Counted from the stretch's first letter, positions 28,861 through 59,163 are shown. The stretch is 64,000 nucleotides of DNA from Phycisphaerales bacterium (GCA_036392375.1 DASVYC010000054.1:9200-73199), one strand, 5' to 3'. Notes: generated from the letters alone by a model not told the origin. Made by a program: numbers and translations.

Positions 28861-30065
28861 ATGATCGCGAACACCGCCGCTCGCTGGCGGCTCGGAGGAC
28901 GCACGTGGCGGCTCTTGGACAGATTCTCGATCGGCTCGGTCCGGGTTGGACGCATGTGCTCCAGGCACCGGAGCGACTGCGGCTCCAGATCTGCCTCACG
29001 CCCCTCTCTCGCGCGGGCATGAGTCTCAACGCCCCCACCGAGACCTTTCGAGCGGACGCGGAGTACTTCTACCCCGCCAGCACGGTGAAGCTGCTCGCTG
29101 CGTTGTGCGTGTTGCGACGGGTACGAGCGTTGCGGGCCCAGGGCGGCGCATGGTCTGGGTTCTCGCTCGACACGCCGCTCGCGTTCTTCCCCGAGAACGC
29201 GGAGCCCATCACCGCCGACGACACCAACCTCGAGGGCGGCGAGCTGACGCTCCGCCACTGCATCCGACGGGCTTTGATCGTTTCGGAGAATCCGCCGCAC
29301 AATCGGCTGTACGAGTTCCTTGGGCACGAGGGGATCAACGCCGAGCTTCAAGGGTTAGGCTTCACAGGCTGCGTCATCAACCATCGACTGGACGACGTGC
29401 GCTCGCCGGAGCAGCAGCGCACGACGCCGCGGATCGTGGCGATGCTTCGGGACGGATCCAGGCTGGAGATCCCCCATCGGGTGGGGGCGGTGCTGCCGTA
29501 TCCGAGAGACGTTCGCCAAACTCGGATCGGCTCGGCTTTCTTTCGCGACGGGGTTCGTATCGAAGGACCGATGGACTTCGCGGCCGTCGGCGAGGAGAAG
29601 AACCGCGTGCGGCTGTCCGATCTGCACGCCTTGATCTGTCGCCTCCACCCACGGGGTTCACCCGCGGAGCACGACGCGGCGGCACGAGATCTCCAACTCG
29701 CATCGGAAGACTTGTCGTTCCTGCACGAGTGCATGACGATCCTTCCCCGCGCGAGCGTCAACCCGCGGTACGACGCCGATCAGTACCCCGACGACTACGC
29801 CAAGCCCATGCTCCCGGGTGTGCACGCCGTGGATCCGAACGCTCGGATCACCAACAAGCTCGGTTGGGCCTACGGATTTGTCACCGACACGGGCGTTCTC
29901 TGGAACACGGCCGGAGACGCGTTCGCGCTCAGCTTTTCGTTGTGGGCGTGCGCCGGGGGAGTCCTTGGGAACGACGACTACGAGTACGACAGCGTCGCCA
30001 AGGTCTTCGCCGCCGATCTCGCCCGGGCCGCGGCAGCGCACTTGTGGGAATCGAAGGTTCGATGA
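28857..30065 (+). CDS. class A beta-lactamase-fold serine hydrolase
   Basis: ATG 28857 overlaps the upstream stop as ATGA. SxxK (ASTVK at about residue 75), an SEN motif in the SDN position, and a KLG motif in the KTG position. No signal peptide seen. Confidence 0.65.
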   Translation: MNDREHRRSLAARRTHVAALGQILDRLGPGWTHVLQAPERLRLQICLTPLSRAGMSLNAPTETFRADAEYFYPASTVKLLAALCVLRRVRALRAQGGAWSGFSLDTPLAFFPENAEPITADDTNLEGGELTLRHCIRRALIVSENPPHNRLYEFLGHEGINAELQGLGFTGCVINHRLDDVRSPEQQRTTPRIVAMLRDGSRLEIPHRVGAVLPYPRDVRQTRIGSAFFRDGVRIEGPMDFAAVGEEKNRVRLSDLHALICRLHPRGSPAEHDAAARDLQLASEDLSFLHECMTILPRASVNPRYDADQYPDDYAKPMLPGVHAVDPNARITNKLGWAYGFVTDTGVLWNTAGDAFALSFSLWACAGGVLGNDDYEYDSVAKVFAADLARAAAAHLWESKVR

Positions 30066-30083
30066 GCTCACTCGCCCGCGGAC

Positions 30084-30111
30084 TTGACCGCGGACAGAAG
30101 AGCGTTATCAT
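30084..30111 (+). promoter_or_regulatory. candidate sigma70-type promoter of the his operon (TTGACC-N16-TATCAT)
   Basis: -35 TTGACC (30084-30089) and -10 TATCAT (30106-30111) each match the consensus at 5/6, with a 16-nt spacer. The predicted start falls at or next to the leader GTG at 30118. Confidence 0.45.
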
Positions 30112-30117
30112 CTCTCC

Positions 30118-30174
30118 GTGACCTCGCAGCAGTTCCATCATCACCATCACCACGCCCTGACCAAGGCCGGCTGA
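30118..30174 (+). CDS. hisL: his operon leader peptide (18 codons, 6 consecutive His)
   Basis: GTG ACC TCG CAG CAG TTC CAT CAT CAC CAT CAC CAC GCC CTG ACC AAG GCC GGC TGA. It is too short for the ORF track, lies directly upstream of hisG, and is followed by a terminator. Confidence 0.6.
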   Translation: MTSQQFHHHHHHALTKAG

Positions 30175-30209
30175 TGGTGCGCTGCGAGTAACGTCCAGCA
30201 AATCCAGAC

Positions 30210-30240
30210 GACGCCGGCCTCGTGCCGGCGTCTTGTGTTT
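30210..30240 (+). terminator. attenuator terminator upstream of hisG
   Basis: 9-bp GC stem GACGCCGGC/GCCGGCGTC (30210-30218 and 30224-30232) with loop CTCGT, followed by TTGTGTTT. The left arm can alternatively pair with AGGCCGGC at 30164-30171. Confidence 0.6.
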
Positions 30241-30284
30241 CGGGCCTGAACGGGTCGGGAACGCGGGCGAAGGCCGAGTCCGGC

Positions 30285-31217
30285 ATGGGAGCGATCATGC
30301 CGCAGAATCAAGCCACAGAACTCTCCAAGCAACCCCGCACCACCGATGCGCCGACGGCATCCGCCGACGTGCGGCTGGCCCTGCCCAAGGGCCGCATGCA
30401 GCAGGGCGTGTTCGCGCTGCTCGCGGACGCGGGCATCCACGTCCGCGTGGGCAGCCGAGGCTATCGGCCGCAGATCTCGCTTCCCGGCATCGACGCGAAG
30501 ATCTTGAAGCCTCAGAGCGTGATCGAGATGCTCGCCGCCGGCTCGCGCGATGTCGGTTTTGCGGGCGCCGACTGGGTCCGGGAGCTCAACGCCGATGTGG
30601 TCGAGGTCCTGGACACCGAGCTCGATTCGGTGAAGCTCGTGGCCGCCGCCCCGGCGCCGCTGCTGGTCGAAGGAAAGCTGCCCCAGCGTCCGATCGTTAT
30701 CGCTTCCGAGTACGAGCGCATCACCCGCGGCTGGATCCAGGCCCGCGGCTACGACGCCCGCTTCGTGCGCTCATACGGCGCCACGGAGGTCTTCCCACCC
30801 GAGGACGCGGACTGCATCGTCGACATCGCCGCCAGCGGCGAGACGCTGCGGGCTCAGAACCTCATCGTCTTCGACGAGATCATGCGTTCCTCGACGCGGT
30901 TGTACGCAAGCCGATCCGCCCTGAAGTATCCGACCCGCAAGGCCGCGATTGATCGGCTGGTGCTGCTGCTGGCCTCGGTGCTGGAGGCACGCCGCCGTGT
31001 GATGCTGGAGGTCAACGTCACCCGCGCGGCGCTCGAGAGCGTTGTTTCGGCTCTGCCCTGCATGCGCGAACCGACGATCTCCCCGCTGCACGGCGAGGGC
31101 GGCTACGCGGTCAAGGCCGCCGTGCCTCGAGCGCTGCTCCCAACGCTCATCCCCGAAATCAAGTCCCGCGGCGGCACCGACATCGTCGTCACCCAGCTCT
31201 CGCAGATCATCCCATGA
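30285..31217 (+). CDS. hisG: ATP phosphoribosyltransferase (long form with C-terminal regulatory domain)
   Basis: ATG 30285 (alternative 30297). LALPKGRMQQ N-terminal motif and a HisG C-terminal domain are both present. Confidence 0.9.
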   Translation: MGAIMPQNQATELSKQPRTTDAPTASADVRLALPKGRMQQGVFALLADAGIHVRVGSRGYRPQISLPGIDAKILKPQSVIEMLAAGSRDVGFAGADWVRELNADVVEVLDTELDSVKLVAAAPAPLLVEGKLPQRPIVIASEYERITRGWIQARGYDARFVRSYGATEVFPPEDADCIVDIAASGETLRAQNLIVFDEIMRSSTRLYASRSALKYPTRKAAIDRLVLLLASVLEARRRVMLEVNVTRAALESVVSALPCMREPTISPLHGEGGYAVKAAVPRALLPTLIPEIKSRGGTDIVVTQLSQIIP

Positions 31218-32701
31218 GCACCGCGACCCCAACTCCCGGCGCGCCGACGCTCAGCCCCTATTCCACCCCCACCACCGGGGCGGCGATCGACCTTTTTCTC
31301 GACGCCAACGAGGGACCGGGAGGCTGCGTCGATGTCGCCCGTCTCGCCGCCCTGCTGCCCAGCGATGCGACGCGTCGCTACGCCGGGCCGATCGTGCTCG
31401 AGCAGCAGCTCGGGGCGGTCCTCGGGTTGAACCCCGCACGCGTGCTGGTGACTGCGGGCGGCGACGAGGCGATCGACCGAACGTGCCGAACATTTCTCAC
31501 TCCAGGCCGTGAGCTGATCCTGCCCACGCCCACGTTCGAGATGATCGGCCGCTACGCCCAGCAGGCGGGCGCGACCGTCGCTCCAACGCCGTGGAACCCG
31601 GGGCCGTACCCAGTCGACCGCGTCTTGGAACTGGTGAACCCACGCACCGCGATGATCGCGGTCGTCTCTCCCAACAACCCGACCGGGTCGGTAGCCTCGG
31701 CAAGCGATCTGCGCCGCCTCGCCGAGGCGGCGCCCAATGCCGTCTTACTCGTTGACCTGGCGTACACCGAGTTCGCCGATGAGGACCTGACGCGGGCCGC
31801 GCTTGAGTTGCCAAATGCGGTCGTCATCCGAACGTTCTCGAAGGCTTACGGCCTCGCGGGTCTGCGAGTCGGTTACGCGCTGGGGAGCGAGAACGTGATC
31901 GGGTCGCTGCGAGCTCACGGTTCGCCCTTCCCCGTGTCGACGCTGAGCCTCGCGGTCGCTGCGGAAGCGTTGCGGCGGTCTGCGGATTATCTGCCCGGTG
32001 TGGTGTCGCGGGTGCGCGCGGAACGGAGCGAGCTTGGGGTGCTCCTACGCGAGCTTGGAGCGAACCCGCTGCCTTCGCAGGGCAATTTCATTCTCGCAGA
32101 GTTCGCGGACGCGGATTGGGTGTGGCGAGCATTGGCGAGTCTTGGCATCGGGGTTCGACGATACAAGCCCGGCGTTGGCCTGGACCGCGCGCTACGCATC
32201 ACCTGCCCGGGCGATGCGACATCCTTGACGCGCCTGACACATGGCCTTCAACAGGCGATGCGCCCGGGCACGATTGTCGTCGCTACGGACGATCTGGATG
32301 CTCCCCTGTGGAACGACGCGAACACAACGGCCTTGCGCCGACTCGCTGCGCGCCTACCTGTCGTGCTTGTCACACGTGTTGCGCGAGACAGATGCGAACG
32401 CGAGCTGCGGGACCGCGGCCTCGAAGGCGTGTGCGCGGGTGTGATCGCCGCGGAAGGGCTCGATGATCGGGCCACCGCGGAGGCTCTCACAGGTACGCTC
32501 ACGCGATTACAAGCCGCACCGGGGTGGATGGTGTCCACGTCCCCCGATTTCCTCCCGGCGCCATCAGCCGCATCGCGCCTGATTCCCCTTGGGTGGGTTG
32601 CGCCCGGAACGCTCGGCGGCCAAGGCGCCGAGCAGCTCCGCCGCGCAGGCGCGGCACGCGTTGTCGACTCCCTTCTCTCGCTGGAGGATCTTCTCTCATG
32701 A
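31214..32701 (+). CDS. hisC: histidinol-phosphate aminotransferase with ~150-aa C-terminal HAD-like extension
   Basis: ATGA overlap with hisG. PLP-Lys motif [16 protein letters not shown]. The aminotransferase part ends around residue 345, and the tail contains [17 protein letters not shown] and MVSTSPDF. Confidence 0.88.
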
Positions 32702-33285
32702 CACCCCGCACCGCCACCATCGCACGCAAGACCAACGAGACCACCATCGCTGTCACCATCAACCTCGATGGCACAGGGATCGCCGATGTCCGAACCGGGA
32801 TCGGCTTCCTCGACCATCTGCTCACCGCGTTGACGCGGCACGCGCGGCTCGACGTAACGCTCACGTGTACGGGCGATCTGCACATCGACGATCACCACAC
32901 CGCGGAGGATTGCGCTCTGGCCCTAGGCGCGGCGATCGACAAGGCGCTGGGTGAACGCCGCGCCTTTGCACGCTTTGGTAACGCCTACGCACCCCTCGAC
33001 GAGGCACTCGCGCGGGCCGTCGTGGATCTGTCGGGCAGGCCGTTCTCCGTGGTCGAACTCGGACTGCGCCGCGAGTCGATCGGCGGGCTCTCGTGCGAGA
33101 ACATCCCGCACGTCATCGCCTCGCTTGCGGTCGCGCTCCGTGGCGCGATCCACGTGGATGTGCTGCGGGGCGAGAACGACCACCACCGTGCCGAGGCCGC
33201 GTTCAAGGGGTTGGCGCTGGCGCTCCGCGCGGCGCTGGCACGCACCGCGGACGCTGACGTTCCGAGCACGAAGGGAGTCCTGTGA
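32698..33285 (+). CDS. hisB: imidazoleglycerol-phosphate dehydratase (monofunctional)
   Basis: ATG 32698 overlaps the hisC stop (ATGA). 195 aa, with IGPD motifs DDHHTAED and [10 protein letters not shown]. Confidence 0.92.
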
Positions 33286-33908
33286 GCGGGCCCGAGGTTG
33301 TCATCCTCCGCACCGGGAGCGCGAATCTCGCGTCGGTCTGCGCCGCGTTCGCACGCCTGGGCGCTCGCCCACGGATCACCCAGGACATCGACCTGGCCCG
33401 CAGTGCGCCGTTGCTGGTGCTACCGGGCGTCGGCGCTTTCGGTGCGGCGATGCGCGAGCTGCAACGCTGTGGGCTTGACATCGTCATCCGCGAGCGCGTC
33501 ACCGCCAGCCGCCCCCTGCTCGCGATCTGCCTGGGACTTCAGCTTCTCTGCGAGAGCAGCGAGGAGTCGCCGGGCGTGCGAGGCTTGGGAGTCGTCACCG
33601 GAGCCGTCACGCGGCTTGCATCGGATGTTCGAGTGCCGCAGATGGGCTGGAACCGCGTCGAGCCAACGCCTGAAGCGTCGCTCTTGCGACCGGACTGGAT
33701 GTACTTCGCCAACTCCTTCCGCCTGGAGAGCATCCCCGCAGGTTGGGCGGGCACCCTGACCCGTTACGGCGGGTCGTTCGCTTCGGCTCTTGAGCGCGGC
33801 CCGATCTTGGCGTGTCAGTTTCACCCCGAGCTCTCCGGCGCCGCCGGACTGGCGCTCCTGACCCGCTGGCTCCAGCGTGCAGCCCGATCGGAGGCGATCG
33901 CATGCTGA
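33282..33908 (+). CDS. hisH: imidazole glycerol phosphate synthase, glutamine amidotransferase subunit
   Basis: GTG start overlapping the hisB stop (GTGA). Class I GATase with nucleophile Cys in AICLGLQLL and C-terminal FHPE. Confidence 0.9.
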
Positions 33909-34663
33909 CCCGCCGCATCATCCCCTGCCTCGACGTCCGCAGCGGACGCGTGGTCAAGGGCGTGCGCTTCCAAGGGCTCCGCGACGCCGGCGACCCGGCG
34001 GAGCTCGCCGCCCGATACGAGAGCGAGGGTGCCGACGAGATCACCCTGCTCGACGTCTCGGCAACGCCCGAGGCCCGGGGAGCCGCCGCCGACACCATCG
34101 CCCGCGTTCGACGCGTGCTGTCCATCCCGCTCACCGTTGGCGGCGGCGTGCGCGAGGTCGCTGACGCGGGACGGCTCCTGGACGCGGGGGCCGACAAGGT
34201 GGGCGTCAACACCGCGGCGGTTGCGCGGCCCGCGTTGATCTCGGAGTGCGCCCACCGTTTCGGCGCGCAGTGCGTCGTCGTTGCGATCGATGCCGCGCTC
34301 GCTCCGGGCTCGTCCCACCGGTGGCACGTGCGGGTCCGATCGGGCGAGGAGGCGACTCCGATCGACGCGGTGGAATGGGCCCGGCGTGCAGCAGACCTTG
34401 GCGCCGGCGAGATACTCCTCACCAGTTGGGACCGCGACGGCACGCGCTCGGGGTACGACCTCGCGTTGACACGCGCGGTCGCCAGCGCCGTCCGTATCCC
34501 TGTCATCGCCTCCGGTGGCGCCGCCGGTCCTGAGCACTTGCTCGAGGCTCTGCGCGCCGGTGCCGAAGCGGTGCTCGCGGCCAGCATCTTCCACGACGGT
34601 GAGCACACCGTCGCCAGCATCAAGCAGTTTCTCGCCTCGCGTGGCGTGGAGATCCGACCATGA
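33902..34663 (+). CDS. hisF: imidazole glycerol phosphate synthase, cyclase subunit
   Basis: ATG 33902 gives [12 protein letters not shown], with a 7-nt overlap with hisH. HisF-like (beta/alpha)8 barrel over its full length. Confidence 0.93.
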   Translation: MLTRRIIPCLDVRSGRVVKGVRFQGLRDAGDPAELAARYESEGADEITLLDVSATPEARGAAADTIARVRRVLSIPLTVGGGVREVADAGRLLDAGADKVGVNTAAVARPALISECAHRFGAQCVVVAIDAALAPGSSHRWHVRVRSGEEATPIDAVEWARRAADLGAGEILLTSWDRDGTRSGYDLALTRAVASAVRIPVIASGGAAGPEHLLEALRAGAEAVLAASIFHDGEHTVASIKQFLASRGVEIRP

Positions 34664-35970
34664 TCATTCCTTCGATCGACCTGATGGGCGGGCAGACCGT
34701 GCAGCTTGTGGGCGGGCGCGAGCACGCGCTGGACGCCGGCGACCCCGTGCCGATCGCGGAGCGATTCGCGCTCGCGGGTGACGTTGCCGTGGTGGACCTC
34801 GACGCCGCGATGGGCAAGGGCTCGAACGCCGATCTGGTGCGTCGCCTGCTGCCGCTGGCTCCGTGCCGGGTGGGCGGCGGCATCCGCGACGCCCGCACCG
34901 CGATCGAATGGCTCGATGCCGGTGCCGCCAAGGTGGTCCTCGGCACCGCCGCCCGGCCCGAGGTGCTGCGCGAGCTGCCCCGGGAACGCGTGATCGCCGC
35001 GCTCGACGCTCGCGATGGCGAGGTGGTCGATCACGGATGGCAGAGGGGAACGGGCGAATCGATTCTCGATCGCATGAAGCGCCTCGAAGGACTCGTCGGC
35101 GGCTTCCTCGTGACATTCGTCGAGCGTGAGGGTCGCCTGGGCGGGACCAACATGGACCTCGTGCCCGATCTCGTGCGGGCCGCCTCGGGCGCGAGGGTCA
35201 CGATCGCCGGCGGCGTGACCACCACGCAGGACATCGCCGCGCTCGACGCGCTCGGCGCTGACGCACAAGTCGGGATGGCGCTGTACACCAACCGGCTCGA
35301 CCTTGGCGACTCGATCGCGGCGCCGCTTCGTTCAGACCGGCCCGACGGCCTGTGGCCCACGGTGGTCGTGGACGAACTCGGCACAGCTCTGGGCCTGGCG
35401 TACTCGAGCGCCGAGAGCCTGCGCGAGGCCGTGCGCTCGCGTCGCGGCGTGTACCACTCGCGGCGGCGGGGTCTTTGGATCAAGGGCGAGACCTCGGGCG
35501 ACACCCAGCAACTGCTGCGTGTGGACCTTGATTGCGACCGCGATGCGGTTCGCTTCACGGTCCGCCAGAGCGGGACGGGCTTCTGCCACACCGGAACGAG
35601 CACCTGCTGGGGCCAGGCAACAGGTTTACCCGCTCTTGCGTCCCGCATCGCCGCCCAGGCCGCGGCTCCGACGCCCGGGTCGTACTCGGCGAGGCTGTTG
35701 TCGGATGCCTCGTTGCTCCGCGCCAAGTTGATAGAAGAGGCCGGCGAGCTGGCGGACGCCGCGAGTGCAAGTGACGTCGCGCACGAGGCCGCGGATGTGA
35801 TCTATTTCACGATGGCAGCGATGCAGCGAGCCGGCGTGCGGCTCGCCGACGTTGCGCACGAACTCGACCGGCGGGCGCGGAAGGTCACCCGACGCCCCGG
35901 CAACGCCAAGCCCGCTCCAAACCCCCCGTCAGGCAGCCAGTTATCCAGTAGCCAGGAGGCCTCGTCGTGA
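34660..35970 (+). CDS. hisA: trifunctional fusion: ProFAR isomerase (HisA) + PR-AMP cyclohydrolase (HisI) + PR-ATP pyrophosphatase (HisE)
   Basis: MIIPSIDLMGGQTVQLVGG (HisA, ~240 aa). Then WIKGETSGDTQQLLRVDLDCDRDAVRFTV..GFCHTG (HisI), then SYSARLL..LIEEAGELADA..EAADVIYF (HisE). ATGA overlap with hisF. Confidence 0.88.
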   Translation: MIIPSIDLMGGQTVQLVGGREHALDAGDPVPIAERFALAGDVAVVDLDAAMGKGSNADLVRRLLPLAPCRVGGGIRDARTAIEWLDAGAAKVVLGTAARPEVLRELPRERVIAALDARDGEVVDHGWQRGTGESILDRMKRLEGLVGGFLVTFVEREGRLGGTNMDLVPDLVRAASGARVTIAGGVTTTQDIAALDALGADAQVGMALYTNRLDLGDSIAAPLRSDRPDGLWPTVVVDELGTALGLAYSSAESLREAVRSRRGVYHSRRRGLWIKGETSGDTQQLLRVDLDCDRDAVRFTVRQSGTGFCHTGTSTCWGQATGLPALASRIAAQAAAPTPGSYSARLLSDASLLRAKLIEEAGELADAASASDVAHEAADVIYFTMAAMQRAGVRLADVAHELDRRARKVTRRPGNAKPAPNPPSGSQLSSSQEASS

Positions 35971-37268
35971 GCCATCTCGCCGACCGCTCGCAAGCGACTC
36001 CATCGCAGCCCCTGCTGCGCACGATCCGGCCCGAGGAGTTCCGCATCCGGTGTTTTCGCGCCGTCGATCCGGCCACACTCGCTGCGGCTCGGTCGATCCT
36101 CGATGACATCGATGCGAGGGGAGAGGCCGCGGTGCTCGACCACGCGCAACGCTTGGGTGATCTGCGTGAGGGTGATCGCCACACTTACACCCCCGCCGAT
36201 CTCGCCGCGGCCCGCGACGCATTACCCGCAGAACAACGGGCGTTACTGGAGCGGATCGCCAGCCGCATCTCCGCCTTCGCTGCCGCCCAGCGCGCGTGCA
36301 TGACGGAATTGACCGTGCCGATCGCGGGCGGGGCTGCCGGGCACTCGTGCATCCCCGTGCGTTCGGCGGGCTGCTACGCACCGGGCGGGCGGTTCCCGCT
36401 GCCGTCGTCGGTGCTGATGACCGCCGTGACGGCCCGAGCAGCGGGCGTGCAGAGGGTCGTGGTGGCATCCCCTCGCCCCACCCAGGTCACGCTCGCCGCC
36501 GCGTCGATCGCGGGGGCCGACGCCCTCATCGCGATCGGCGGCGTGCAGGCGATCGGCGCCCTCGCCCGCGGTCTGCTCGCGGCACCTGCGGGCGGGTGCG
36601 ACGTCATCGTCGGGCCAGGGAATCGATGGGTCACCGCGGCCAAACACCTGGTGTCGGGCGAAGTCGGCATCGACATGCTCGCCGGGCCGTCGGAGCTCCT
36701 CGTGCTCGCCGACGCGACCGCAGACCCGGCACTCATCGCCGCCGATCTGCTTGCTCAGGCTGAGCACGACGACGATGCCATCCCGACGCTCGTCACCACC
36801 GATCCGACGCTCCCCGGTCGCGTGGATGCAGCGCTGCGATCGCAGCTCGAATCGCTGCCCACCGCCCCCACCGCTCGAGCCGCGCTCGCCAACGGCTTCG
36901 CGCTCGTCGCGTCCGACCTCGACGAGGCGATCGCGATCGTGGATCGGGCCGCGCCCGAGCATCTGGAGATCCTCACCGAAAGGGCCGATCACGTCGCGTC
37001 CCGCATCACCAACGCCGGCGCGGTCTTCATCGGCCCTCGCTCCGCCGAGGTCCTGGGCGACTACGGCTCAGGCCCCAACCACGTGCTACCCACGGGCGGC
37101 ACGGCACGCTTCCGCGCTGGTTTGTCGGTGTTCACGTTCCTGCGGGCACGCACCTGGCTGCGAATCGACGCCGCAGATGAAGCCCGCACGCTGGCCAGAG
37201 ACGCCGCCGCGCTCGCGCGACTCGAACGTCTCGAGGGACACGCTCGCTCGGCCGAGGCGAGGCTCTAG
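35967..37268 (+). CDS. hisD: histidinol dehydrogenase
   Basis: GTG start overlapping the upstream stop (GTGA). 433 aa, HisD-like over its full length (QAEHD, GDYGSGPNHVLPT motifs). Confidence 0.92.
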   Translation: MSHLADRSQATPSQPLLRTIRPEEFRIRCFRAVDPATLAAARSILDDIDARGEAAVLDHAQRLGDLREGDRHTYTPADLAAARDALPAEQRALLERIASRISAFAAAQRACMTELTVPIAGGAAGHSCIPVRSAGCYAPGGRFPLPSSVLMTAVTARAAGVQRVVVASPRPTQVTLAAASIAGADALIAIGGVQAIGALARGLLAAPAGGCDVIVGPGNRWVTAAKHLVSGEVGIDMLAGPSELLVLADATADPALIAADLLAQAEHDDDAIPTLVTTDPTLPGRVDAALRSQLESLPTAPTARAALANGFALVASDLDEAIAIVDRAAPEHLEILTERADHVASRITNAGAVFIGPRSAEVLGDYGSGPNHVLPTGGTARFRAGLSVFTFLRARTWLRIDAADEARTLARDAAALARLERLEGHARSAEARL

Positions 37269-37380
37269 ACGCACCGTTGCGGAGCCGCGCCAGAGACCGC
37301 GGGCCTTCACCTCGCGTCTCACCCGAGCGTCTCGCCCGAACGTCTCGTGATGTTGCGATGCGGCGCGCTCGCTCCGCGAC

Positions 37381-37413
37381 CAAAAACAAAAAGACCCTGA
37401 GGATCAGGGTCTT
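37381..37413 (-). terminator. rho-independent terminator after tRNA-Asp
   Basis: Perfect 10-bp stem AAGACCCTGA/TCAGGGTCTT (37391-37413) with loop GGA. On the minus strand it is followed by TTTGTTTTTG. Confidence 0.65.
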
Positions 37414-37418
37414 GAGAA

Positions 37419-37492
<74 letters not shown>

Positions 37493-37523
37493 TGCATGTG
37501 TCCGCGGCGTGCCGCGGGTCAGA

Positions 37524-37551
37524 ACAATAGCGCGTTGCCCGGTGTTTTCAA
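37524..37551 (-). promoter_or_regulatory. candidate promoter for tRNA-Asp (TTGAAA-N16-TATTGT)
   Basis: On the minus strand, -35 TTGAAA (37546-37551) and -10 TATTGT (37524-37529). It lies about 30 nt upstream of the mature tRNA 5' end. Confidence 0.3.
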
Positions 37552-37609
37552 CTCAGCCCGCACGCTTTTCGAAGCTCTCGGACGGACCCGCTCAGAAGAT
37601 CCATCGGCC

Positions 37610-37828
37610 TCAGCGGCGATCACCGGCGAGCTTAATCTGCTGGCCCTTCTCGTGCACCGCGAAGGGGTGGCCGCCGTCCGCGGGGGCCACCTTCATCGCT
37701 GCGAAGTACATCACCACGCACGCAGCCGCGAGTGCGACCACCGCGAGGAACGCCAGCACTGTGTACACATCGAGGCCGCTGCCGCGCCGGGATTTGCCGC
37801 CGGGCATCTGCATTCCGAACTGGGACAT
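37610..37828 (-). CDS. small single-pass membrane protein, hypothetical
   Basis: 72-aa ORF with one hydrophobic helix (VYTVLAFLAVVALAAACVVMYFAAM). It sits 36 nt downstream of the coiled-coil gene on the same strand. Confidence 0.45.
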   Translation of the reverse strand: MSQFGMQMPGGKSRRGSGLDVYTVLAFLAVVALAAACVVMYFAAMKVAPADGGHPFAVHEKGQQIKLAGDRR

Positions 37829-37864
37829 GGAACGCTCCTGGAGTCGGGGTACGGTCGTAGCGGA

Positions 37865-38734
37865 TTACTGCAGACGCGAGGCGACCGAGTCGCCAGCCTT
37901 CACCTCGACCTTGCGGCTGAGCGCGTCCACGCGGGCGATCGCGAACCGCAGGTCGGTCTTCACCACGATCAGGTTCGCGACAAAGTCCTTGCCGCGGCTG
38001 ACGAAGAGCTTCTGGTTCTCGCGGATGCGGTCGTTGCTGCCCAGGTTGATCTTGACCAGCGTCGCGCCGGTCGAGGGGTCGCTGCTGACGGTCTCGACGC
38101 TGCCGGTCACCGGAATGCCCGTGTCGACAAACGCGTCGCCGGCGACGCTGCCCGAGACGCTGGACACCACGCCCATCGACGAGCCGCTCTCGCGGGCGAG
38201 GCGAGCCTCCTCGAGCTGCTCACGCAGCGCACGCACGCTCTGGGTCAGCACCTCGTTCTGGCTCTCCAGGTCGCTGATGCGGTCGTCGGACTGCACGGCC
38301 TGCTCGCGGAAACGCAGCTCGTTCTTGCGAAGAGCCGACACCTCGTCGCGGTAGCCGCTGAGCAGCGTCGCCTGGGTCTTCACCGTCTCGCCCAGCTCGG
38401 CGATCTTCAGGGTGATGGCCTGGAGCTCCTGTTCGGCCTTGGCCTTGCCGCGGGTCAGGTCGGCGTTCACGCGCTCGAGCTCTGCGAGCTTGGAGGACGC
38501 GTCGGCGAGGGCCTTGGACAGGTTGTCACGCTCGGTCTGGGCACGCAGACGCTCCTCGCCCGACTGGGCGGCGTTGGACGCCGCGCCGGCGAGGGCGTTC
38601 TGGCTGCGGGCGACCTCCGCGTCGCGATCGGCGAGAATGCGGTCGGTGTTCACCGAGTAAGCGATGACGAGCGCCGACAGGAACAGGCTCAGAACCGCGG
38701 CGAAGATGACAAGGACTTTCGTGAGCGTCGCCAC
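37865..38734 (-). CDS. membrane-anchored coiled-coil protein with C-terminal beta-rich domain, hypothetical
   Basis: GTG start. N-terminal TM (VLVIFAAVLSLFLSALVIAY), ~170 aa of heptad-rich sequence, then a compact C-terminal domain (ATLVKINLGSNDRIRENQKLFV..VKAGDSV). Confidence 0.6.
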   Translation of the reverse strand: MATLTKVLVIFAAVLSLFLSALVIAYSVNTDRILADRDAEVARSQNALAGAASNAAQSGEERLRAQTERDNLSKALADASSKLAELERVNADLTRGKAKAEQELQAITLKIAELGETVKTQATLLSGYRDEVSALRKNELRFREQAVQSDDRISDLESQNEVLTQSVRALREQLEEARLARESGSSMGVVSSVSGSVAGDAFVDTGIPVTGSVETVSSDPSTGATLVKINLGSNDRIRENQKLFVSRGKDFVANLIVVKTDLRFAIARVDALSRKVEVKAGDSVASRLQ

Positions 38735-39036
38735 TCGTGGCTCCTCTGGTAACTCGGGCGGGCTGCGCCGCCCCTGCGTCTCTCGAACCCGGACGCCGCT
38801 TCGGCGACCGTCCGACCTCGGGAGGGCCGAATCATTCGTCCCTCACCGGCCCCAATCAAATCCTGACCCCAAAGGTTTGGCGCGGCCTGCCGCCAGCAGC
38901 CCGCACCACCACTATCCGCTCCGGGGAGCCGCCAAGTTCCATGAACCCGGACACCTCCCGACGACGCGGGTGGATAGAAGTAACCGATTTTCGCGGGGCT
39001 GTCAACCGGCGCCGGGCCGCATGGCTCCCCGGGCAC

Positions 39037-55290: not shown

Positions 55291-57618
55291 CTAGCGATCC
55301 TTCATCGCCTGAGCGCCGTCCGCGGCACGCTGACCGATGGTCGCGACTTTCAGCACCGCGACCGCGGTCTCGAGCTGCAGGTCGAGGCCCTCGTTGAGCA
55401 GCCTCTCGGGATTGGGACGCTCCTTGGCACCCGGGGTGTCACCGGGCAGGACGTCCGCATCGCGGCGCAGCAGGATCGCCTCGGTCGTCTGCTTGGGCAG
55501 CATCTCCATCGGCAGCGTGGGCGAGATCCCCCACTCATGGGCGCCGGGCTTGCGGTGGATGATGCGGTAGCCGGGGGGCGCGTTGTCGGGGATGGCGTAG
55601 TACTGCATCGTGAGCTTCATGGCGGCGTCGTCGGAGATGCCGAAGACCTTCTGCACGCTGCCTTTGCCGAAGCTGCGTTGGCCCATGATCATGACGTTGA
55701 TGTCACCGTTCTCGCCGTAATGCTGCAGCGTGCCGCTGACGATCTCGCTCGCGGACGCGGATCCCTCGTTGATGAGGACGACCACGGGGGTCTTCGAGAG
55801 TCGAGCGATATTGGATCGCGCCACCTCGGGGCTCTCGGCCCGGCCGCCCGGACCCTGCATCGCTACCAGAACGCCGCTATCGACGAACAGGTTGGCGACC
55901 TGCACCGCCTGGTCGAGATAGCCGCCGGGGTTAAAGCGCAAGTCCATCACCAGCCCCCGGAGGCCTTCCTTCTGCATCTGGTTGACGGCGCGACGGAGCT
56001 CGGAAGCGGTGTTCTCGCTGAACTGCGTGAGCCGCACGTAGCCGATCTGGTTCTCGCGATCGATGAACCAGTCCCACGCGTCCTCGCGGGCGCCGCTGCG
56101 CTTCCAGCCCTTGACCGACACCACGTTGATGAGCTGACGCGCGATGGTCAGCTCGACCTCTTCGTACTTCTTCTCGCCCGCGGGCGCGTCCGCTGCGGCC
56201 ACGAGGGGGCGGTCGAGTGACAAGACGACCTTGGTGCCCTCGGGGCCGGTGATGTTGTCCACCACCTGATCGATGCCCATGCCGTAGGCCGACTTGCCGT
56301 CGATTTTCTTGATGATGTCCCCGGCGCGGATGCCGGCGCGGAACGCGGGCGTGCCTTCGATGGGGCTGACGACCTTGACGTTGGACTGATCGTCGAGCTC
56401 GATCTGGACGCCGATGCCGACAAACTTGCCCTGGGTGTTGCGGTTGAAGCGGCTGAGCTCGTCGGGCCAGATGATGGCGCTGAACTCATCGAGCTGGTCC
56501 ATGGCGCCGTTGCCGAACTCGTGCAGCACGGCCTCGCGGGGCATCTTGACGGTGCGGTCGTTCACCGCGAGCACGCGGGTGAGCAGCGCGTCGATCTCCG
56601 CGAACCCGGGCTCGGTGGCGCGACCGAACATGTTCTTGCGGACCTCGCCCAATCGCTCCTTCTCCGAACGCAGCGACGCCAGCAGCGTCTCGCGCGCGGA
56701 GTCGTTGTCCATGCCGGGGAACGCCTTGTGCAGGTCGTGCGTGCCCACCATGGTCTCGACGGCCCCCAGGCCGCCCGCCAGCAGCGTCCGCATCGGGATC
56801 TGCTCGACGTGATCCGAGGCCCGGGCCAGGGCTCGCACCACCGCTTCCTGGTTCACGCCCTGCAGCTTCTTGTTGAAGTCGTCACCCGTGGGGTTGTAAG
56901 GCGGAAGCCGCTTCTGGTTCTCCGCCTTCAACCGGTCGTTGCGGAGCTCCCACAGCCGCTGCGGCACATACAGGCGAAGCATCGAGAGCCGGCGCGTCTG
57001 GCGCTCCAGATCGCCCTTGTAGCGACCCGATTCCTCGTGCAGGGCGTTGAGCAGGCTGTAGAGCTCGCTGGCCGCGAGCCACTGTGCGCTCGACTCCGCG
57101 GTGCGGGCGGCGGCGTCGACTTCCTGCGTGAGCTGCTTGACCCGTGGGTCCTCGATCACGCTCGCCTTGTCGGGGGTCAGCACCCAGAGCTCGATGGCGC
57201 TGCGCATCGCCTGCGACAAGCGCGTGAGCGTGCGCTCTCCGCCCAATCGCTCGTCAAACTCCTTGTTGACTTCGGCAAGCCGCTCGGCCCGCTTGCCCTC
57301 CCGTTTGGCGAGGTTCTGCTCCAACAGCTTGGCCGCGTCCAGGATCTCGTCGCGATCGCCGCCCGAGAAGCTCTGCGGCGGGTTCTTGATGTAGGCCAAG
57401 AAGTCGTCGAACCGGCCCGACTTGGCGATCCGCCAGCCCCGCGTCGACCAGTCGCTCGTGCTCAGGGCCTCGGCTCGGTCATCCGACTGCGCGACGACCG
57501 CGGCGTGGAGCGGGGTCGTCCATCCCGCCGAGATCATCAGCGCCGCGGCGACCAGGCCGGCTCGAAGCATGCTTGCGGACGAGAATCCACGACCACTCCA
57601 ACGCACGATGTCGACCAC
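55291..57618 (-). CDS. carboxy-terminal processing peptidase (S41) with PDZ domain and long N-terminal helical region
   Basis: PDZ (GIGVQIELD..SPIEGTPAFRAGIRAGDII) and S41 catalytic region (LINEGSASASEIVSG, FGKGSVQ). Start placed at the GTG ending at 57618, preceded by AAGGGAGG; ATG 57570 is the alternative. The ORF-track extension to 57879 is discarded. Confidence 0.85.
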   Translation of the reverse strand: MVDIVRWSGRGFSSASMLRAGLVAAALMISAGWTTPLHAAVVAQSDDRAEALSTSDWSTRGWRIAKSGRFDDFLAYIKNPPQSFSGGDRDEILDAAKLLEQNLAKREGKRAERLAEVNKEFDERLGGERTLTRLSQAMRSAIELWVLTPDKASVIEDPRVKQLTQEVDAAARTAESSAQWLAASELYSLLNALHEESGRYKGDLERQTRRLSMLRLYVPQRLWELRNDRLKAENQKRLPPYNPTGDDFNKKLQGVNQEAVVRALARASDHVEQIPMRTLLAGGLGAVETMVGTHDLHKAFPGMDNDSARETLLASLRSEKERLGEVRKNMFGRATEPGFAEIDALLTRVLAVNDRTVKMPREAVLHEFGNGAMDQLDEFSAIIWPDELSRFNRNTQGKFVGIGVQIELDDQSNVKVVSPIEGTPAFRAGIRAGDIIKKIDGKSAYGMGIDQVVDNITGPEGTKVVLSLDRPLVAAADAPAGEKKYEEVELTIARQLINVVSVKGWKRSGAREDAWDWFIDRENQIGYVRLTQFSENTASELRRAVNQMQKEGLRGLVMDLRFNPGGYLDQAVQVANLFVDSGVLVAMQGPGGRAESPEVARSNIARLSKTPVVVLINEGSASASEIVSGTLQHYGENGDINVMIMGQRSFGKGSVQKVFGISDDAAMKLTMQYYAIPDNAPPGYRIIHRKPGAHEWGISPTLPMEMLPKQTTEAILLRRDADVLPGDTPGAKERPNPERLLNEGLDLQLETAVAVLKVATIGQRAADGAQAMKDR

Positions 57619-57885
57619 GCGACCTCCCTTTAGCCAGACCCATCCGCAGACCGACCGCCACAGCGGTTGTTCGGGACCGACTCCCGCGGCATTCACGCAT
57701 CGGGCCGGCGCGAAGACCGCGTGACCGGTTGCCCGACTTCGCTCCGCGCCGGGAGCATATCGGACCGGCGCGATCGATTCGCACCCAACCCGCGGCATCG
57801 CCGCCAACCTTGGCTTGTACCGACTCCCCGGGTCGTGGGTTCGATTCTCGGAACACCCTTCGCCCCCGCCGCGAGGCACGCCACA

Positions 57886-59048: not shown

Positions 59049-59122
59049 GGGCGCGTAGCTCAGTTGGCTAGAGCGCGGCTGTCACATAGCCGAGGTCACA
59101 GGTTCGAGCCCTGTCGCGCCCA
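59049..59122 (+). tRNA. tRNA-Val (anticodon CAC)
   Basis: GGGCGCGTAGCTCAGTTGGCTAGAGCGCGGCTGTCACATAGCCGAGGTCACAGGTTCGAGCCCTGTCGCGCCCA. Perfect 7-bp acceptor stem; anticodon loop GTCACAT. Confidence 0.9.
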
Positions 59123-59134
59123 TTCGACCCGTTC

Positions 59135-59163
59135 AAGCCCTGTTTCTCAGGGCTTTTTCTTTT
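59135..59163 (+). terminator. rho-independent terminator after tRNA-Val
   Basis: Stem AAGCCCTG/CAGGGCTT with a 5-nt loop, followed by TTTCTTTT. Confidence 0.75.

Follow-up and report, generated by a model that had tools for sequence, protein, structure and literature searches.

A predicted leaderless histidine leader-peptide attenuator in front of the his operon of an uncultured Phycisphaerales bacterium and its relatives

The window analyzed here, a 64-kb stretch of DNA (DASVYC010000054.1:9200-73199 of GCA_036392375.1), comes from a metagenome-assembled genome (MAG) of an uncultured member of Phycisphaerales (Planctomycetota) and contains a seven-gene histidine biosynthesis (his) operon, which lies downstream of a gene for a beta-lactamase-fold protein ending at 30065. 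Between this gene and hisG we examined a compact element consisting of a promoter, a short open reading frame (ORF) with a run of His codons, and a hairpin with a T-rich tail (Table 1), which an initial annotation made from the sequence alone had proposed to be a hidden attenuator of the operon. Its promoter, its 18-codon ORF with six consecutive His codons, and its terminator were all borne out base by base. That annotation had started hisG at ATG 30285; this ATG is present and in frame, but the public annotation begins four codons further downstream, at ATG 30297, with a Shine-Dalgarno (SD) motif GGGAG at 30287-30291. The leader ORF is located 111-123 nt upstream of hisG, and the terminator ends 45-57 nt before the hisG start without overlapping the hisG SD motif. 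The families of all seven genes were identified by NCBIfam and Pfam scans, and the stop and start codons within the operon overlap. The hisG product is 100% identical to a protein from a Phycisphaerales MAG and has its best relatives in Phycisphaerae/Planctomycetota, in agreement with the suggested genome of the Planctomycetes-Verrucomicrobia-Chlamydiae (PVC) type.

Table 1. Coordinates, strand and basis of the features of the candidate his attenuator and of the operon that follows it
Feature	Coordinates	Strand	Basis or remark
Sigma-70-like promoter: -35 box TTGACC (30084-30089), 16-nt spacer, -10 box TATCAT (30106-30111)	30084-30111	+	10 of 12 consensus matches
hisL-like leader ORF, 18 codons plus stop, peptide VTSQQFHHHHHHALTKAG	GTG 30118 to TGA 30172-30174	+	Base-by-base reading
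Six consecutive His codons, CAT CAT CAC CAT CAC CAC (three CAT, three CAC)	30136-30153	+	Proposed sensor of charged tRNA-His
Region 1: 5' strand of the 1:2 (anti-antiterminator) helix, codons 2-4 and His codons	30123-30151	+	Minimum free energy folds
Region 2: last codons AAG GCC GGC, stop codon UGA and UGGUGCGCUGCGAG	30164-30188	+	Partner: region 1 or region 3
Region 3: CCA..CG, left arm of the terminator and first loop bases	30204-30220	+	Partner: region 2 or region 4
Predicted intrinsic terminator (attenuator): 9-bp GC stem, GACGCCGGC (30210-30218) and GCCGGCGTC (30224-30232), loop CTCGT	30210-30232	+	
T-tail of the terminator, TTGTGTTT (also written TTGTGUUU)	30233-30240	+	Consensus scan
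his operon: hisG (long form with regulatory C-terminal domain), hisC, hisB, hisH, hisF, hisA-hisIE fusion, hisD	30297-37268	+	NCBIfam, Pfam

The promoter is the only plus-strand sigma-70-like match in the 11 kb between 28 and 39 kb of the window (on both strands, two matches were found versus 0.4 expected). GTG 30118, situated 6 nt past the -10 box, is the only start codon of a frame that opens after TGA 30085, and the six His codons, one third of the 18 codons of this ORF, form the only run of at least four CAY codons on either strand of the window. The hairpin (in RNA form GACGCCGGC/CUCGU/GCCGGCGUC, with the tail UUGUGUUU) is one of about ten strong hairpin and T-tract sites on the two strands; the other sites are found at the 3' ends of genes and tRNAs or, in one case, in an unexplained promoter-terminator unit, and no run of amino-acid codons was detected at them.

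For comparison, we used 80 species-representative loci around relatives of this hisG (62-79% identity), which are the best 80 of at least 579 hisG loci. Many of the MAG names are plainly unreliable (for example, a contig with 72% GC is named "uncultured Enterobacteriaceae"), which limits the taxonomic reading of these loci. In a simple scan, about 50 of the 80 loci showed a short ORF with a His run at 110-220 nt before hisG. The 23.5 kb upstream of hisG contain 36 runs of at least four His codons versus four in the other 971 kb (both strands), which corresponds to an approximately 370-fold enrichment, and runs of at least five number 19 upstream of hisG versus none elsewhere in the related loci. 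Leaders from 37 related loci were aligned (alignment A2), and a covariance model (R1) built on this alignment found a single match in the window (30115-30242, 94 bits). It also matched 57 of the 80 hisG loci, in each case directly 5' of hisG on the coding strand (37 seed sequences and approximately 20 new ones), including the loci with interrupted runs or truncated contigs that had been missed by the regular-expression screen for His runs (L008, L026, L030, L046, L074, and L077), whereas a search of 573 kb revealed no further plus-strand matches. Absence of a His-run ORF in front of hisG in related genomes would have counted against the initial annotation, but this check clearly goes in its favor, since in these 57 loci the ORF, the terminator and their spacing are kept. 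None of the 80 loci contains the genes found upstream of the element in the window, but hisC, hisB, and hisH follow hisG in at least 70 of them; the element therefore belongs to the his operon and not to the preceding gene.

The shared layout opens with the -35 and -10 boxes and a start codon; variable N-terminal codons lead to the His run, after which come, most often, six more codons ending in GUG/AUG-GCC-GGG (or GGC), the stop codon UGA, and UGGUGCGC. A variable stretch of 25-35 nucleotides then separates this block from (A)CCAU, which is followed by the hairpin CGACGCCGGCC-loop-GGCCGGCGUCG and a T-rich tail. A typical leader peptide can be written as M-x(5-10)-H(4-7)-x(4)-(V/M)AG followed by the stop. 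Six codons are the commonest distance between the last His codon and the stop codon (23 of 46 leaders), and the stop codon is UGA in 38 of the 46. The core of the terminator, ACGCCGGCC, is conserved in sequence throughout the family, and the best-conserved block of the alignment outside the terminator is GGCCGG(G/C)UGAUGGUG. Residues before the His run vary freely, while the last codons are conserved at their third positions, as are the untranslated bases that follow the stop codon, and these signs suggest that selection acts at the RNA level rather than the peptide level. CAT accounts for 57% of the His codons in the leaders versus 15-17% in hisG and other neighboring genes, a bias which can be explained by the fact that G-UGA-UGGUG is the exact complement of CAC-CAU-CAC. 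Region 2 is thus triply constrained, in that it forms the end of the coding sequence and is complementary both to the His codons and to the terminator arm, and this triple constraint accounts for its unusual conservation, for the UGA stop codon, and for the CAU bias, and plausibly also for the conserved sequence of the terminator.

With regard to initiation, the 150 nt in front of each His run were screened without bias for the best promoter. A TTGAC.. / TA...T pair occupies the equivalent position in 38 related loci (background 0.12 per kb in these loci), and 33 of the 38 have their first in-frame start codon 5-10 nt downstream of the -10 hexamer. Only two of 46 loci have an SD-like motif before the leader ORF, versus 37 of 46 before an in-frame hisG start, and none was seen before GTG 30118 in the window. 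Because the start codon lies so close to the -10 box and no SD motif is present, the leader mRNA is probably leaderless, as had been suggested in the initial annotation, and promoter geometry would put the transcript start at GTG 30118 or a few nucleotides from it.

The leader RNA of the window (30118-30245) has a minimum free energy (MFE) of -54.9 kcal/mol, better than all of 200 dinucleotide shuffles (z = -3.5). In the unconstrained MFE structure we found both of the pairings between regions 1 and 2 that had been read by eye (30123-30130 with 30181-30188, and 30142-30149 with 30172-30179). The full 1:2 helix joins 30123-30151 to 30167-30188, its isolated hairpin (30118-30192) amounts to -30.1 kcal/mol, and within it the His codons CACCAUCA pair with UGAUGGUG; the free RNA combines this helix with the terminator (-51.8 kcal/mol in total). 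To represent a stalled ribosome, the RNA was masked to 12 nt past the A-site on the first or second His codon. With such a footprint, the MFE structure of the full-length RNA becomes the antiterminator (-34.8 kcal/mol). For the nascent RNA extending up to the loop, a ribosome on the His codons leaves the antiterminator at -26.1 versus -19.3 kcal/mol for the terminator, and in this antiterminator 30164-30171 pairs with 30213-30220, 30172-30173 with 30209-30210, and 30175-30177 with 30204-30206. With the ribosome at the stop codon, which is located inside the 5' arm of the antiterminator both in the window and in the consensus, the terminator is the only fold formed. The 8-bp antiterminator of the initial annotation (30164-30171 with 30213-30220) does appear when the His codons are masked, but in most relatives it is longer, since the stop codon and the three nucleotides after it also take part (UGAUGG with CCAUCG).

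Constrained folds yielded the same three mutually exclusive states in the window and in the 37 relatives, as had been proposed. Among these relatives, the terminator formed in 35 of 37 free RNAs and in all 37 with a ribosome at the stop codon, and with a stalled ribosome all 37 had the left arm of the terminator paired to region 2; energies of this pairing were below those of shuffled region 2 sequences (median z -2.2, with 23 of 37 loci below -2). RNAalifold, applied to the 37-sequence alignment, recovered the terminator alone. As the 1:2 and 2:3 helices do not keep the same register from locus to locus, they were assessed by named structures on the alignment, per-sequence constrained folds, and duplex energies; the shuffle controls for them are only moderately discriminating because all partners are GC-rich. 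Pairing on the alignment reaches 95% for the terminator, whose two basal pairs show compensatory changes. A two-helix antiterminator (consensus GGCCGG with CCGGCC and UGAUGGU with ACCAUCG) has 78% of its cells paired versus 23-57% in slid registers, and eight of its pairs show double changes, such as GGUUGGCG opposite CGCCGACC in L059 and UGAUGGA opposite CAUCA in L039, L045, L052, and L053. Median duplex energies in 46 loci were -19.0 kcal/mol for regions 1 and 2 and -21.2 kcal/mol for regions 2 and 3. The terminator, an exclusive antiterminator, the pairing between regions 1 and 2, and the position of the stop codon, by which leader-peptide attenuators are recognized, are all present in silico.

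Taken as a whole, we consider that the element is a classical ribosome-mediated transcription attenuator of the his operon, with a probability of roughly 85%; the hisL-like mechanism of the initial annotation is supported by folds and conservation as far as computation reaches, and the transcript 5' and 3' ends, termination itself, and the response to histidine are what we infer from sequence. Transcription would start at or near GTG 30118, and the 18-codon ORF would be translated from a leaderless mRNA. When histidine is plentiful, the ribosome would reach UGA 30172 within region 2 and cover the 5' arm of the antiterminator (30164-30177), so that the terminator hairpin at 30210-30232 and its U-rich tail could form and transcription would stop approximately 45-57 nt before hisG. 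When charged tRNA-His is scarce, the ribosome would stall on 30136-30153 and occupy region 1, leaving region 2 free to pair with the left arm of the terminator once region 3 has been made, and RNA polymerase would read through into hisGCBHF(A-IE)D. Without any ribosome, regions 1 and 2 would pair and the terminator would form by default.

Several observations weigh against this interpretation. The U-tract UUGUGUUU is imperfect, with five U among eight residues, and the second antiterminator helix of the window is degenerate relative to the family consensus. With the footprint on later His codons, the equilibrium MFE structure of the full-length RNA reverts to the terminator, and antitermination would therefore have to be kinetic and co-transcriptional, as in the classical model. 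The invariance of the terminator core means that it provides no covariation information, shuffled GC-rich region 2 sequences also pair fairly well with the left arm (the per-locus z medians of -1.6 to -2.2 are modest because all partners are GC-rich), and related sequences can exceed shuffle controls without any structure. In addition, leaderless mRNAs with a GUG start are translated efficiently in some lineages but not in others.

The imperfect U-tract is also the reason why we regard one alternative, and only one, as live, namely that histidine is sensed by ribosome stalling but the output is not intrinsic termination, the hairpin instead exerting its effect by way of Rho, of RNA stability, or of hisG translation (translational attenuation, as with the mycobacterial poly-Cys leaderless sORFs). 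Weak tails in relatives L017, L025, L050, L054, and L070, leaderless short-ORF (sORF) attenuators documented to act on ribosome-binding sites (10.1101/834739), and actinobacterial leaders without a clear terminator (PMC8079986) would fit such an output. However, the distance between the hairpin and the hisG SD motif, the T-rich tail present behind the stem in most of the 57 loci even at 60-70% GC, and the same hairpin and T design after tRNA genes in this genome argue for termination, and we consider this alternative unlikely. A different possibility is that the short ORF encodes a functional His-rich micropeptide, for instance a metal-binding one, unrelated to regulation of hisG. The leader unit does have its own promoter and terminator, and the C-terminal ..(V/M)AG residues of the peptide are conserved; but the RNA segment encoding these residues is precisely the one that pairs with the terminator arm, synonymous positions of GCC GGG/GGC and the bases after the stop codon are conserved while peptide length, His number, and the residues before the run vary, and the element is found directly 5' of hisG alone whatever its upstream neighbor, which makes a micropeptide very improbable. 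Least probable of all is a reading in which the His codons are incidental and the element either is a riboregulator that binds a protein, a tRNA, or a metabolite (of the T-box or riboswitch type) or simply terminates transcription of the beta-lactamase-like gene upstream. T-box(His) elements are known to control his genes in Firmicutes and Actinobacteria (PMC9413887), and the hairpin lies 145 nt past the stop codon of the upstream gene. On the other hand, a strong promoter separates that gene from the hairpin, and this reading is largely refuted by the His-run enrichment described above, by the comparison of neighboring genes (none of the 80 loci has the upstream gene, yet the element persists), and by the Rfam search, in which no such family, T-box included, reached threshold in the window or in 12 related loci.

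More specifically, the Rfam His_leader model (RF00514) gave no match in 29500-30800 even at E ≤ 10 and none at gathering score in the window and the 12 loci (13 sources), and the T-box covariance model had no match around the element or in the same sources. The only leader-type match was Thr_leader with 20 bits versus a gathering score of 55 (E = 0.61), the remaining matches being four tRNAs. The present leaders resemble enterobacterial hisL in design, with a short ORF carrying consecutive His codons directly upstream of hisG, an intrinsic terminator (here predicted) before the first structural gene, and a choice between terminator and antiterminator that would depend on ribosome position, but have no detectable homology to it in sequence or structure. 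They also differ from enterobacterial hisL in their high-GC planctomycetal host and in a leader ORF that lacks an SD motif and starts 5-10 nt past the -10 box. Four segments (1:2, 2:3, and 3:4) are involved here, as in trp, whereas the his attenuator of Salmonella follows a six-segment A-F scheme. The peptide of E. coli hisL (MTRVQFKHHHHHHHPD; ..QFKHHHHHHH) has Phe just before its His run. A Phe codon (UUC, 30133-30135) also stands directly before the His run in the window and likewise in leaders L005, L010, L012, L017, L021, L022, and L067, which may reflect coincidence, a constraint of RNA pairing, or an effect on stalling.

Closer parallels in initiation are found in other high-GC bacteria. 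In Streptomyces lividans, trpL1, leuL2, and ilvL encode leaderless leader peptides followed by Rho-independent terminators, with transcription start sites mapped by RNA-seq (PMC8079986), and comparative predictions of leader-peptide attenuators have been published for actinobacteria (PMC1262725). The Streptomyces leaders and the present family share high GC content, leaderless translation (predicted here), and hairpins with a U-rich Rho-independent terminator before amino-acid biosynthesis genes. However, actinobacterial leaders sense Trp, Leu, Ile/Val, Thr, Ala, and Met, with no His leader listed for S. lividans (PMC8079986); the phyla differ and the sequences are unrelated, and while the leaderless starts of Streptomyces were mapped by RNA-seq, that of the present family is deduced from promoter geometry. 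In Firmicutes, leaders have been described for hisS/hisZ (PMC2965389), and candidate His leaders were reported in 2022 from the Bacillus cereus group, Peptostreptococcaceae, and Erysipelotrichales (PMC9413887). These are similarly lineage-specific, unmatched by RF00514, and equipped with a terminator and an antiterminator, with three to five consecutive His codons; unlike the family described here, they occur in low-GC hosts, are unrelated in sequence, and give no evidence of leaderless initiation, whereas the present family is distinguished by an unusually conserved terminator core ACGCCGGCC and the stop-codon block G-UGA-UGGUG. Leaderless poly-Cys sORFs of mycobacteria, which regulate translation (10.1101/834739), likewise combine a leaderless ORF and a run of cognate codons with a stalled ribosome that remodels downstream RNA, but the competing structure here is a hairpin and U-tract terminator well apart from the hisG SD motif.

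We also observed several features in the surroundings of the element. Within the operon, hisF precedes hisA, and a single ORF (34660-35970) fuses HisA (His_biosynth), HisI (PRA-CH), and HisE (PRA-PH). HisC (31214-32701) has 495 residues, and its aminotransferase domain ends at approximately residue 349; the last ~146 residues (~32260-32698) had no Pfam or NCBIfam match. A HAD phosphatase domain was looked for in this extension and found no support in Pfam, although a short stretch faintly recalls HAD motif I. As no histidinol-phosphate phosphatase is recognizable in the operon, a phosphatase fused to HisC is conceivable. The distance from hisC to hisB is either ~1040 or ~1700 nt in related loci, and the HisC extension therefore varies in length. 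Downstream of the operon, tRNA-Asp (minus strand, 37419-37492; region 37391-37492) and, further away, tRNA-Val (plus strand, 59049-59122; region 59049-59155) are each followed by a hairpin and T-tract within 6-13 nt, which suggests that intrinsic terminators are in use in this genome. A mechanically called plus-strand ORF (37277-38752) is probably not a gene, since it overlaps tRNA-Asp and has no family match; an ORF with high GC content at third codon positions lies on the opposite strand (37865-38734). The unexplained promoter-terminator unit mentioned above is located on the minus strand (58050-57890), where a very strong terminator (11-bp stem at 57923-57898 and UUCGUUUUU) lies ~130 nt downstream of a promoter-like TTGACC box and ends 19 nt before the start of the gene for an S41 C-terminal processing protease (55291-57879). 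This unit had no Rfam match and no codon run; it could represent a small RNA or a 5' regulatory element, or else serve to terminate the PEP-CTERM gene upstream.

The leader family was also detected in records named for several phyla, in which the same leaders with the ACGCCGGCC core precede hisG genes of 62-70% identity. Examples include L075 (CP011806.1, 'Acidobacteria bacterium Mor1'), L026, L030, L050, and L057 ('Myxococcales/Polyangia'), and the marine L045, L052, and L053 ('Gammaproteobacteria/Acidobacteria'). This points either to joint transfer of the his operon and its attenuator between phyla or to wrong names for many of the MAGs.

These leaders appear to represent a his attenuator family of Phycisphaerales and their relatives that is absent from Rfam, and both the sequence family and its occurrence in this phylum appear to be undescribed. 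The initial annotation knew of no such mechanism in this lineage, and we found no report of attenuation, leader peptides, or leaderless mRNAs in Planctomycetes, although most subscription journals lay outside the search and this absence is weak evidence. The mechanism itself is old and ordinary, namely textbook leader-peptide attenuation, the understanding of which is unchanged, and the leaderless feature is not new in kind because it is known in Streptomyces, there in terminator-type leaders (PMC8079986), and in mycobacteria (10.1101/834739). We tentatively suggest, at slightly less than even odds, that this is the first recognized family of leader-peptide attenuators in Planctomycetota, a leaderless His attenuator conserved across Phycisphaerales with implications for transcription-translation coupling and for the transfer of cassettes. 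Leader-peptide systems were long held to be limited to Proteobacteria and Actinobacteria and were later found in Firmicutes (PMC2965389), and the present family would extend amino-acid attenuation beyond these two phyla and some Firmicutes (PMC2965389, PMC9413887). As a candidate RNA family outside current Rfam, it also implies that annotators miss an 18-codon gene and a regulatory site in hundreds of MAGs, and it would provide a clear case from nature of a single RNA segment under three constraints. If the near-identical copies in Acidobacteria (Mor1), Myxococcota, and other groups are real, the his operon and its attenuator would have moved between phyla as a self-regulating cassette.

The cell biology of Planctomycetota has long been argued to separate the nucleoid from ribosomes. 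Attenuation needs translation to follow closely behind transcription, and conservation of this family would therefore be indirect genomic evidence for coupling in Phycisphaerae, as well as for functional intrinsic terminators and leaderless initiation. If the proposed mechanism is true, the pioneer ribosome would be tightly coupled to RNA polymerase from the first transcribed nucleotide in Planctomycetota.

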